Source: a virus
Lineage: Duplodnaviria; Caudoviricetes
DNA length: 64,000 nt
Virus record (IMG/VR): IMGVR_UViG_3300050142_000050
Coordinates: 96,001 to 160,000 of that record
Reading direction: 5' to 3' (one strand)
The stretch's first letter is position 1, and the number at the start of each line of letters is the position of its first letter. The translations under genes and the position numbers were made by a program. Positions 6,278 through 7,991 of the stretch are shown piece by piece. Below the pieces are notes generated by a model. The model ran no database searches. It was given only the letters and a program-made list of their open reading frames with translations, and was not told the DNA's origin.

Positions 6278-6292
6278 CATATCACTCTTATG
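6278..6292 (+). promoter_or_regulatory. Putative early promoter CATATCAC-N5-TG in front of the RNA operon
   Basis: catatcactcttatg matches the recurrent YATATYAC-N5-TG motif. Confidence 0.6.
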
Positions 6293-6347
6293 AATAAATC
6301 GGGATGTCCGACATTGAAAAAATGTTAGTCTGAACGAACCTTATTCT

Positions 6348-6816
6348 GTTGGAAGAGAGTCATCGATCATACCCCCTCTCTCAGAGCCGACCCCACCTCG
6401 GCGATCGGTGATTTCTCTTCCAACCTATTTGACAACCATGGACCATCCCTCCCGAAGGTCAGACCCGTCCCTCGAGGTCCATGGTTGTCAAATGGATATT
6501 CCAGTTTCACAAAGCAGTGCGGTAACGCACTCGCCCTTTTGTGGTCGCAGTCAGGACAACGATCCTGACTAGAGGGTAACCAGAGGTCGTGAGCTCCACT
6601 CGACTACTTGACATGTACACGACCCCCATGTCAGGTGGAAGAATCTTAACGACCTCTGGTTATTCTATACGAGATTCGCACGACGGCTGATGTAACCACC
6701 GGCGGTTGGGCGAAAGCTCGGTACTCGAATGATTCCTCCTGCATGTCGGCTTAGGACACTGCATGTGGGGGTTGTTCCCTCTTCCTCCTTGGAGGGTAGA
6801 GTCGATCGAGTACCGA
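6348..6816 (+). ncRNA. Candidate large structured non-coding RNA 1
   Basis: No credible ORF. Consecutive stems: 6348-6358/6414-6424, 6427-6444/6476-6493 (18 bp perfect), GTAA tetraloop hairpin 6516-6531, 6549-6570, 6577-6590/6649-6662 (14 bp), 6718-6728/6806-6816. Confidence 0.6.
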
Positions 6817-6828
6817 GTACTTATTACT

Positions 6829-6904
6829 GCCGGCTTAGCTCAGATGGTAGAGCACCTGATTTGTAATCAGGGGGCCAGGGGTTCGATCCCTCTAGCCGGC
6901 ACCA
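6829..6904 (+). tRNA. trnT: tRNA-Thr(TGT)
   Basis: Cloverleaf: acceptor GCCGGCT/AGCCGGC, anticodon arm CCTGA-TTTGTAA-TCAGG, T loop TTCGATC, encoded CCA; 76 nt. Confidence 0.95.
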
Positions 6905-6909
6905 CAGAT

Positions 6910-7328
6910 TCGGTCTGAGGAGACGCGCCTCTCATCGAGTAGTCGCTGTATATGACACTACTCGCAACAGTGATCAGCAGCTGTAGAAGTCACACCCTCA
7001 CGGTGGTCGAATCTTAGACGTGAGATTCGATAAGAGCTTCAGCTACAACCCCATGGAAACCAGTAGGGCCGCTACTGCGGTGATCGTGTCGGTACGGTAA
7101 CGATGATATAAGTCGCGTCTCTTGTCGCCAGTGCGTAATGTCGCTCTGGCGGAGTCGTGCATCATACGACCCTCCGATAATCTGGATTTCCATGGGGATC
7201 CTATTCCCTACCATTTGATGGATAGACGTAGGGGTGTACCTTATTAACCATCTAGGTCTTCCTGCTCACCGGGGTGATACCGAAAATAAGTCGATCGGTT
7301 TATCCGGTCGATTAGGGTGAGCCATTTT
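6910..7328 (+). ncRNA. Candidate large structured non-coding RNA 2 (possible pseudoknot)
   Basis: No credible ORF. Stems 6936-6942/6958-6964, 7007-7016/7021-7030, 7049-7063/7182-7197, crossing helix 6918-6927/7114-7123, and terminal stem 7264-7270/7316-7322 followed by CATTTTT. Confidence 0.55.
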
Positions 7329-7351
7329 TGAGTCTAGTGCAGGAGAAGGTT

Positions 7352-7729
7352 ATGGCCGATATCAAACTGACAGACTCCGCAGAAGCTAAACGCGAGCTGC
7401 GAAACAAGAAAACCTATGAGCTCTTCAAGAAGCTGGTCAATATGTCAGCTTCACAGATCGAGAAATTCCTCGAGACTGATGAGAGTAAGAAGGTAGGCTT
7501 CAAGAAGGAAGGTAGTGATGAGTCAGTAGGACATCAGTCTGGACGACGTATCATCAAGATCCTACGTACACCTAAGTCACAGCTCGATGAGAGTGACTAT
7601 GCCCACATGCGTAAGGTATGTGCATACATCACACGCCATCTGGCTCAAGGTGGTCCTGAGACAAAAAAGGAAACGAGCCGCTGGCGCTATTCCTTGATGA
7701 ACTGGGGACATGATCCCCTCAGGAAATAA
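7352..7729 (+). CDS. DUF3140-family protein
   Basis: LVNMSASQIEKFLETDESKKVG, ESVGHQSGRRIIKIL, DYAHMRKVCAYITRHLAQ and SRWRYSLMNWGHDP follow the DUF3140 consensus; ATG 7352 follows AGGAG. Confidence 0.85.
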   Translation: MADIKLTDSAEAKRELRNKKTYELFKKLVNMSASQIEKFLETDESKKVGFKKEGSDESVGHQSGRRIIKILRTPKSQLDESDYAHMRKVCAYITRHLAQGGPETKKETSRWRYSLMNWGHDPLRK

Positions 7730-7737
7730 ACGAATAT

Positions 7738-7825
7738 GGAGGGTACTGAGGTTGGCTCCTCACACGGATTTGAAACCCGTAGGTGCGTTAATTCGCGGAT
7801 GGTTCGATGCCATTGCCCTCCGCCA
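7738..7825 (+). tRNA. trnS: tRNA-Ser(TGA), long variable arm
   Basis: Acceptor GGAGGGT/GCCCTCC, discriminator G plus CCA, anticodon loop TTTGAAA, variable hairpin GCG-TTAATT-CGC, T arm GATGG-TTCGATG-CCATT. Confidence 0.85.
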
Positions 7826-7950
7826 CAGATAAGGATCTCGTGCTCTCCTTTTCCGTCCTTCATGTGCCTCTACGGAGGCCGTCGGGCGATGTACTTCGGC
7901 ATTACGATGCCGATGGCTTAGAGCGCTATAACGGGATTCTTTAGGGTGAC

Positions 7951-7991
7951 GGGTGAGGGCTTACGCCCTCACCCTGATCTCCTTATTTTTT
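7951..7991 (+). terminator. Terminator closing the RNA operon
   Basis: gggtgagggc-ttac-gccctcaccc followed after 8 nt by TTATTTTTTTT. Confidence 0.75.

Follow-up and report, generated by a model that had tools for sequence, protein, structure and literature searches.

Does a gene-poor unit in the genome of a giant phage give rise to RNAs of an undescribed kind, or is it another form of an arrangement that is already known? The question was raised by positions 6278–7991 of a 64,000-nucleotide stretch of phage DNA (hereafter the window), in which a preliminary description had seen a candidate for an undescribed system, made of three structured RNA segments interleaved with two tRNAs and a DUF3140 gene. 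The window corresponds to bases 96001–160000 of an IMG/VR record of 249,638 bases, which belongs to an uncultivated giant phage from leaf litter. We assigned it to the phiKZ-like jumbo phages, with a genome of ~250 kb, because of PHROG matches to split multisubunit RNA polymerase beta genes. In the best-supported reading, the locus is a tRNA island of this phage, which would be transcribed early as one precursor and cut by tRNA maturation into five pieces. Our preferred explanation for the gene-free pieces is a role mainly in cis, in which they would resist nucleases as spacers, provide scaffolds for processing and serve as attenuators. We hold this to be only somewhat better than an even guess. 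The idea of an undescribed system was not borne out, because the arrangement is already known as a T4-like tRNA operon and only the first gene-free piece, segment 1, is clearly unusual.

Limits of the predicted transcription unit and its two tRNA elements

The unit runs for 1.7 kb from promoter to terminator and carries, all on the plus strand, two tRNAs and one small protein gene within ~1.1 kb of gene-free sequence. Crude open reading frame (ORF) tiling of the 250 kb gave a coding share of 93% for the genome (GC 51%), in which positions 6273–7013 are the largest ORF-free gap, in line with the earlier remark about a non-coding stretch in a gene-dense genome. An ORF survey found no supported ORF in 6273–6828, 6905–7351 or 7826–8039. 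The JGI gene calls place ORFs of 40–59 amino acids here, and a 54-amino-acid ORF with a GTG start lies at 6408–6572, which might speak for small proteins encoded in the segments and missed by gene callers. However, the called ORFs overlap a tRNA or sit on the opposite strand, none of them has a Shine-Dalgarno sequence, and stops occur throughout all frames. The longest ORFs of segment 2, of 41 amino acids on the plus strand and 66 on the minus strand, are not supported either. We regard a coding explanation as extremely improbable.

The promoter and terminator families of the phage were found as words enriched in the intergenic DNA of the genome. The promoter motif family has the consensus TCATATTACC-N3-GTGA, and the early-type site before segment 1 (6279–6296, plus strand; CATATCAC...ATGAA) carries the CATATCAC variant, with a predicted transcription start at ~6292–6294. 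With a position weight matrix (PWM), the site at 6269–6296 scored 19.4 bits, though it was outside the training set of 18 other sites. Sites above 12 bits occur 24 times on the plus strand of the genome and never on the minus strand; the PWM scan gave no second site within 6200–8050, and no sigma-70 promoters were found. The nearest relative in IMG/VR, G001, has TATATTAC 24 times, on one strand only. Jumbo phages that encode RNA polymerases each have an AT-rich motif centred near -10, which marks the early promoters of the virion RNA polymerase (PMC7598289). The signals of phiKZ-type phages resemble those found here in having an AT-rich motif upstream of plus-strand operons and terminators with a GC hairpin followed by CTTATT(T)n, whereas the motif of the present phage is its own. 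The element at 6278, previously called promoter-like, is a real member of this promoter family and probably belongs to its early class; its timing and its polymerase are assigned by analogy with phiKZ-type phages.

In the terminator family, a GC-rich hairpin precedes (C)CTTATT and a run of T, an architecture shared by ~15 other intergenic terminators. The phiKZ-type intrinsic terminator at 7946–7995 (plus strand), a GC hairpin and then CCTTATTTTTTTTT, is a textbook copy (GC hairpin plus CCTTATTTTT), and the end of the unit had been recognised correctly as a terminator, here the standard one of this phage. The terminators of phiKZ itself are built as a stem-loop followed by TTAT (PMC10914365). 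The core CTTATT was observed four times in the 1723-nucleotide unit, against 0.28 copies expected from the plus strand of the genome (p 2e-4). The internal copies lie on the plus strand at 6340–6345, at 6820–6825 just after hairpin H7 of segment 1, and at 7240–7245 after a hairpin, and they may be weak or leaky terminators or attenuators. Because there is one promoter, no internal second site, one strong terminator and one strand, co-transcription as a single predicted unit is the natural reading. Judged by sequence, a single promoter and a single terminator serve both the tRNAs and the other RNAs, as in T4-like operons. The upstream genes are not separated from the unit by any terminator, and therefore read-through from a promoter at window position 2213 is also possible.

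The first tRNA, a tRNA-Thr(UGU) at 6829–6904 (plus strand), was found as claimed, by ARAGORN as well as by Rfam (RF00005, 69.6 bits against a gathering score of 29). The second element, at 7738–7825 (plus strand), had been taken for a tRNA-Ser, which holds in part. Manual inspection showed an acceptor stem of 7 bp, a T arm of 5 bp whose loop is TPsiC-like, a long variable arm, the anticodon UGA, G73 and CCA, and alone the element folds as a class II cloverleaf. However, ARAGORN did not call it, and RF00005 gave no match at E ≤0.1 in the genome search; its only Rfam match was to the tRNA-Sec model, with 45.4 bits against a cut-off of 47 (E 2e-7). It deviates from the canonical core (U8, A14 and a D stem of 3–4 bp) by A8/C9 and a D stem of 5 bp, and it has an A31-C39 mismatch. 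We treat it as a divergent, non-canonical class II tRNA-Ser(UGA) or a tRNA-like processing element. In both elements the encoded CCA is followed by the identical CAGAT, as had been noticed before. The codons read by the two tRNAs, ACA and UCA, are used by the phage 13.2 and 8.7 times per 1000 codons, and the tRNAs may supplement those of a GC-rich alphaproteobacterial host or replace host tRNAs hit by defence nucleases.

Another tRNA-like element stands elsewhere in the same genome, at G000:C1:2792-2882. There, the promoter motif occurs as a strong site (31 bits), and within ~25 nucleotides after it comes an element that matches RF00005 (37.4 bits, model positions 4–67), in which a 4-nucleotide loop replaces the anticodon loop, and ~400 nucleotides without a long ORF come after it. 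It may be a second tRNA-like processing signal heading an early transcript.

How could the unit be expressed? As predicted from the sequence, transcription would start near 6293 at a promoter of the virion-RNA-polymerase type and stop near 7990 at the phiKZ-type terminator. From established tRNA biology, host RNase P would then cut the 5' ends of both tRNAs, and an endonuclease such as RNase E would cut a few bases past the CCA, in the common CAG/AU trailer. RNase E has a cleavage preference for RN/WUU, and a cut of this type would fit such a trailer. Since the tRNAs would be excised from one precursor, the precursor would have to split into pieces. The five predicted products are a hairpin-chain leader of ~535 nucleotides, the tRNA-Thr, a DUF3140 mRNA of ~830 nucleotides with a structured leader of 447 nucleotides, the divergent tRNA-Ser, and a tail of ~165 nucleotides with the terminator hairpin at its end. 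The amounts of the tRNAs and of DUF3140 might be set by the CTTATT motifs that follow hairpins, together with the hairpin and five-U run before the DUF3140 start. The earlier proposal of one precursor cut at its tRNAs thus has two parts: co-transcription is supported by the single promoter, terminator and strand, and the tRNA-punctuated processing may soundly be inferred. The release of stable, functional novel RNAs would go further, and it gains no support from the missing Rfam matches and homologues, the uniform copies and the ordinary folding of two of the three segments.

The hairpin chain of segment 1

Segment 1 (6293–6828, plus strand), an ORF-free leader RNA with seven consecutive hairpins, is the only piece whose strong folding hints at an independent RNA function. 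Its minimum free energy (MFE) is -224.1 kcal/mol with a z-score of -11.9, and none of 100 shuffles was as stable, whereas the other ORF-free gaps scored on this strand gave z-scores of -2 to -5. The hairpins H1 (6348–6424), H2 (6427–6493), H3 (6504–6548), H4 (6549–6570), H5 (6573–6666), H6 (6675–6714) and H7 (6716–6818), all on the plus strand, measure 22 to 103 nucleotides. Several have near-perfect stems of 18–24 bp, and the arms of H2 pair perfectly over 18 bp. The segment contains the second and fourth most stable 450-nucleotide plus-strand intervals of the genome, the most stable one being an AT-rich palindromic region at 87.6–88.2 kb. It carries GNRA and UNCG tetraloops and has no other copies in the genome. 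H7 was also considered as a decayed copy of tRNA-Thr and was rejected as such, because the local alignment with tRNA-Thr gave p 0.15.

The apical loops of segment 1 are C-rich, with a C fraction of 0.45 against 0.30 +/- 0.05 in shuffles, none of 200 of which reached 0.45. Examples are AUACCCCC, CCCCACC, CCUCC and UCCUCCUU. The loops hold six C-motifs where 1.0 is expected and have hardly any G (10 of 100 unpaired bases). Several have CCUCC, CCCUC or CACCUC, similar to the anti-Shine-Dalgarno sequence at the end of 16S rRNA. These C-rich loops are peculiar to this phage: they were considered as a trait common to the segments of its relatives and rejected, since they were not seen in the analogous segments of G001 or of the leaf-litter contig L036.

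Such a chain raises the possibility that segment 1, and perhaps other pieces, might be a trans-acting regulatory or decoy RNA that is made early, the hairpins with their C-rich, G-poor loops titrating a G-rich RNA or a C-binding protein. Parallels are the hairpin arrays of the CsrB/RsmZ kind, which titrate CsrA, and sponges made from tRNA spacers, such as 3'ETS-leuZ, which titrate small RNAs. The run of seven hairpins at such a z-score, the loop composition with its excess of C-motifs, an early-type promoter directly upstream, and the cost of a 535-nucleotide leader in a genome that is 93% coding all argue for a role of this kind. However, the enrichment of CCTCC and CCCTC is only modest (uncorrected p 0.03 and 0.004), and the mRNAs of the phage itself have the same Shine-Dalgarno sequence. 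In addition, the relatives lack the C-rich loops in their analogous segments, and segment 1 is not conserved and has no known partner. The likeness to the CsrB/RsmZ sponges is one of hairpin-array architecture only, because the loops are C-rich where those sponges have GGA, and no RsmZ or CsrB model matched. We consider a trans-acting role possible but rather unlikely. A more specific form of it, which we find doubtful, would make segment 1 an early effector RNA of ~0.5 kb, released by the RNase P cut at tRNA-Thr. Its seven nuclease-resistant hairpins would present the C-rich loops, some of which equal the anti-Shine-Dalgarno core CCUCC, as a multivalent sponge or decoy, either for G-rich RNA (ribosome-binding sites or host small RNAs) or for a C-binding host factor such as Rho.

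The inverted repeats could instead act as DNA: they might form an origin of replication, a site of packaging or recombination, or palindromes to which proteins bind. The perfect 18-bp arms of H2 would agree with this, as would the minus strand of segment 1, which also folds very stably (-197 kcal/mol). However, a promoter and a terminator flank the locus, which is on the strand of both tRNAs, and within the helices of segment 1 there are 13 G-U pairs but 2–3 A-C positions, although this is a weak test given the ratios in coding windows. There is also a much better origin-like candidate ~8 kb before the window, at G000:C1:87600-88240, an extremely AT-rich (GC 0.14–0.39), palindromic and ORF-free region whose two strands fold equally well (z -7.4 and -7.6). 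That region is a candidate for an origin-like or other DNA-level element, and we judge a DNA-level function of segment 1 very improbable. As proof of RNA-level selection, the count of G-U against A-C was rejected: it is 26:2 in helices, but random coding windows gave 186:23. Such selection is still supported by the transcriptional setting and by segment 1 itself, through its extreme stability, the composition of its loops and its count of 13 against 2–3 within helices.

The other two gene-free pieces are of a plainer kind. Segment 2 (6905–7351, plus strand), an ORF-free spacer that is also the predicted 5' leader of the DUF3140 mRNA, has several local hairpins, the final one of which, with a run of five U (7262–7334), lies just ahead of the ribosome-binding site. 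Segment 3 (7826–7945, plus strand), the 3' tail, forms a three-way hairpin domain with two UACG tetraloops.

Relatives of the locus and known RNA systems

Do these pieces belong to a described RNA family? An Rfam search of 6200–8050, carried to E 10, gave nothing at E <0.02 besides the two tRNA elements and nothing else at gathering score, with no match to a ribozyme, a riboswitch or another large RNA of Rfam. The covariance models of GOLLD and ROOL, to which the segments could not be matched by eye before, remained unmatched in this search too. In a blastn search against 50,697 phage records, tRNA-Thr was the sole match. A transfer-messenger RNA (tmRNA) at this locus was rejected, since neither a standard nor a two-piece form (RF00023, RF04321) was found in the genome of the phage with covariance models to E 10 or with ARAGORN. 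Single-sequence covariance models of segment 3 and of H7 gave self-matches only, and exact 16–17-mers from the stems had unrelated matches in collections of genomes and of viruses, at about the number expected by chance.

Other copies of the locus add no divergence. Its DNA is letter-identical in JGI and Logan assemblies of >20 leaf-litter metagenomes, and contigs from other samples and four Logan runs showed no variation over the unit except within 6871–6875. These positions lie inside the tRNA-Thr gene, where tRNA contigs of other organisms also align. Every copy of the unit that was found is identical, and hence there was no variation for a covariation comparison. No RNA-seq data set was listed as containing this DNA, and the low share (0.06) of four listed entries is about as much as the 76-nucleotide tRNA-Thr gene would account for by itself.

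More distant relatives have loci of a similar kind. IMG/VR searches with DUF3140 and with the RNA polymerase each found G001 only, which is not syntenic and has 58% identity over the RNA polymerase fragment searched; it was searched as a whole 308-kb genome. Its DUF3140 is located elsewhere, and its tRNA cluster has two structured ORF-free stretches (z about -5) as well as a two-piece (permuted) tmRNA at L014:4825-5275 on the minus strand, equal to G001:C1:302825-303275 (RF04321, 73.5 bits; also found by ARAGORN). The leaf-litter contigs L036–L039 have a DUF3140 that is 68% identical. In L036, a promoter motif at 681 is followed by a structured ORF-free stretch of 640 nucleotides (z about -5) and by a class II-like tRNA with the anticodon CAU and a long variable arm (L036:1320-1404). 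After it come a structured stretch (z -6.5 to -6.9), an ORF of 75 amino acids, two weak tRNAs and an HD_4 gene of the RelA/SpoT type, alarmone-hydrolase-like, at L036:3127-3669, which thus lies inside the tRNA island near DUF3140. Beyond the HD_4 gene, DUF3140 is flanked by stretches without ORFs, 1 kb before it and 0.5 kb after it. In L038, a patch of clustered substitutions lies over a weak tRNA at 2545–2620. The closest DUF3140 is that of L040, a 556-nucleotide ENA contig (85% identical in protein and 83% in DNA), where a canonical-looking tRNA-Ser(UGA), cut by the contig end, stands ~85 nucleotides after the gene. Phages of this group thus seem habitually to keep structured RNA without genes in their tRNA islands, but with sequences that are not conserved.

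How well does an early precursor cut at its tRNAs account for these data? In its favour we count the promoter and terminator bounds, the position of all parts on one strand, the largest ORF-free gap, the z-score, tetraloops and C-rich loops of segment 1, the CCA-CAGAT ends, the enrichment of CTTATT, the similar loci of relatives and the use of ACA and UCA. Several observations weigh against it. With neighbouring coding RNA as folding controls (z -1.95 and -2.95), segment 2 (MFE -162.5 kcal/mol, z -3.9) goes slightly beyond the controls and is not clearly above the local background. Segment 3 without the terminator (MFE -45.3 kcal/mol, z -2.95) is not above the coding background, so that among the three structured segments of the preliminary description only the first stands out. 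The advantage of the plus over the minus strand in folding, 9–22 kcal/mol per 450 nucleotides, falls within the genome spread (standard deviation 14), and the excess of G-U over A-C is equally present in random coding windows. The second tRNA may not be a working tRNA. No homologue of the segments was found in G001, L036, L040 or L041 by short-word blastn and nhmmer --max, with which only DUF3140 and a tRNA matched. The sequence of L040 after the DUF3140 stop cannot be aligned with that of this phage, and its tRNA-Ser is a different one. Because this flank is unalignable despite 83% DNA identity of the gene, the flanks of DUF3140 appear to turn over fast, which fits weak constraint.

Part of this evidence would suit another explanation, in which the gene-free stretches have no specific RNA function. 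They would be fast-evolving filler, such as the remains of tRNAs, small genes or mobile pieces, that turnover and recombination have left in a tRNA island, with hairpins that are tolerated or mildly useful as nuclease stops. The missing homologues, the unalignable flanks in L040 and the background z-scores of segments 2 and 3 point in this direction, and relatives differ in content at the same kind of locus, which includes aberrant tRNAs. The z-score of segment 1, however, is far outside the range of the other ORF-free gaps on the strand. The similarity of H7 to tRNA-Thr is not significant, and the lack of other copies in the genome argues against a repeated mobile element. The sequence is also identical across the >20 metagenome samples, though the whole phage is clonal there. 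Filler is in our view an unlikely account of the locus.

The early precursor cut at its tRNAs has its closest counterpart in phage T4, whose tRNA cluster co-transcribes the stable RNAs species 1 and 2 (rnaC/rnaD), of unknown function. Both are operons of lytic phages in which tRNAs, small ORFs and RNAs would share one precursor that host tRNA-processing enzymes separate, as we infer for the present phage. Unlike in T4, there are only two tRNAs here, the gene-free parts are much longer (0.5 kb), and the promoter and terminator belong, as predicted, to a phage-encoded multisubunit RNA polymerase; the two clusters have no sequence relation. GOLLD (RF01998) and ROOL (RF03087) are large RNAs that often lie beside tRNA genes in phages and prophages. 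The likeness is one of genomic position only, a large ORF-free structured RNA beside phage tRNA genes, because neither covariance model matches up to E 10 and segment 1 has its long, simple hairpins strung in a line, not an ornate multi-junction fold. In the tRNA punctuation of animal mitochondria, in bacterial tRNA-mRNA operons such as tufB and in the 3'ETS-leuZ tRNA spacer sponge, the ends of adjacent RNAs are set by tRNA excision, and a spacer that is set free can have its own function. Those systems rest on experiments, whereas the processing proposed here follows from gene order and the CCA-CAGAT trailers.

The locus is thus best described as a new example of a known arrangement, with RNAs that, by the searches above, fall in no described family. 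Large folded RNAs without genes are found repeatedly in the tRNA islands of giant phages that encode their own RNA polymerases. The locus offers a compact and well-bounded example of them, in the order promoter, hairpin-chain RNA, tRNA, mRNA, tRNA and terminator, and its weight is limited by an uncultivated phage and by segments with no detected conservation.

DUF3140 and the surrounding genome

The protein gene of the unit (7352–7729, plus strand) encodes 125 amino acids and matches Pfam PF11338 with an E-value of 8.3e-36 (122.7 bits against a gathering score of 25), which confirms its assignment to DUF3140. Its start codon and ribosome-binding site are conserved in L040. The 3290 homologues are mostly from Sphingomonas and Methylobacterium-type bacteria, and a scan of JGI metagenomes gave 80 loci, all at ≤63% identity and mostly bacterial-looking. 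A tblastn search against the 50,697 phage records gave no match, and no mention of DUF3140 was found in a literature search. The AlphaFold2 (AF2) model is all-helical, with a predicted local distance difference test score (pLDDT) of 88.5. A Foldseek search of the PDB with it found no match at E ≤0.001, the best VIA-align Z being 4.9, to a designed helical protein, and the sequence search of the PDB gave nothing below E 0.09. The locus ties this widespread bacterial protein to phage tRNA islands in three phage lineages, which provides a lead on a domain of unknown function.

Two-piece (permuted) tmRNA is typical of alphaproteobacteria. The hosts of the DUF3140 homologues and the permuted tmRNA of G001 both point to an alphaproteobacterial host, probably one like Sphingomonas or Methylobacterium. 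The closest cultured phages, Ralstonia RSF1 and others, are only ≤32% identical in the part of the RNA polymerase beta-like protein that was searched, its 500 C-terminal residues. One terminator sequence occurs at both ends of the record, at positions 134 and 249632 of the whole genome; because these copies suggest terminal redundancy, the genome may be complete.

Some neighbouring genes deserve mention. Two genes upstream of the tRNAs, window positions 4130–5629 (plus strand) encode a QueC-like PP-loop ATPase of 499 amino acids (PHROG 1550, residues 12–250) with a long acidic C-terminal extension. The gene in between encodes a protein of 218 amino acids, for which a search of 5.8 billion proteins found only itself and an IMG/VR search no relative. 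A group I intron (Rfam RF00028, 75.2 bits) lies at 13629–13968 on the minus strand, directly upstream of an RNA polymerase beta-like ORF of 1536 amino acids (8693–13303, minus strand), and an ORF of 443 amino acids with an HNH endonuclease domain (13937–15268, minus strand) overlaps it. The intron probably splits an RNA polymerase gene of the phage. Long ORF-free gaps with strand-biased folding were also seen at window positions 38438–38879 (z -4.4 on the minus strand) and at positions 26301–26957 of the whole genome (z -3.6 on the plus strand), and these are possible further non-coding RNAs or long leaders.

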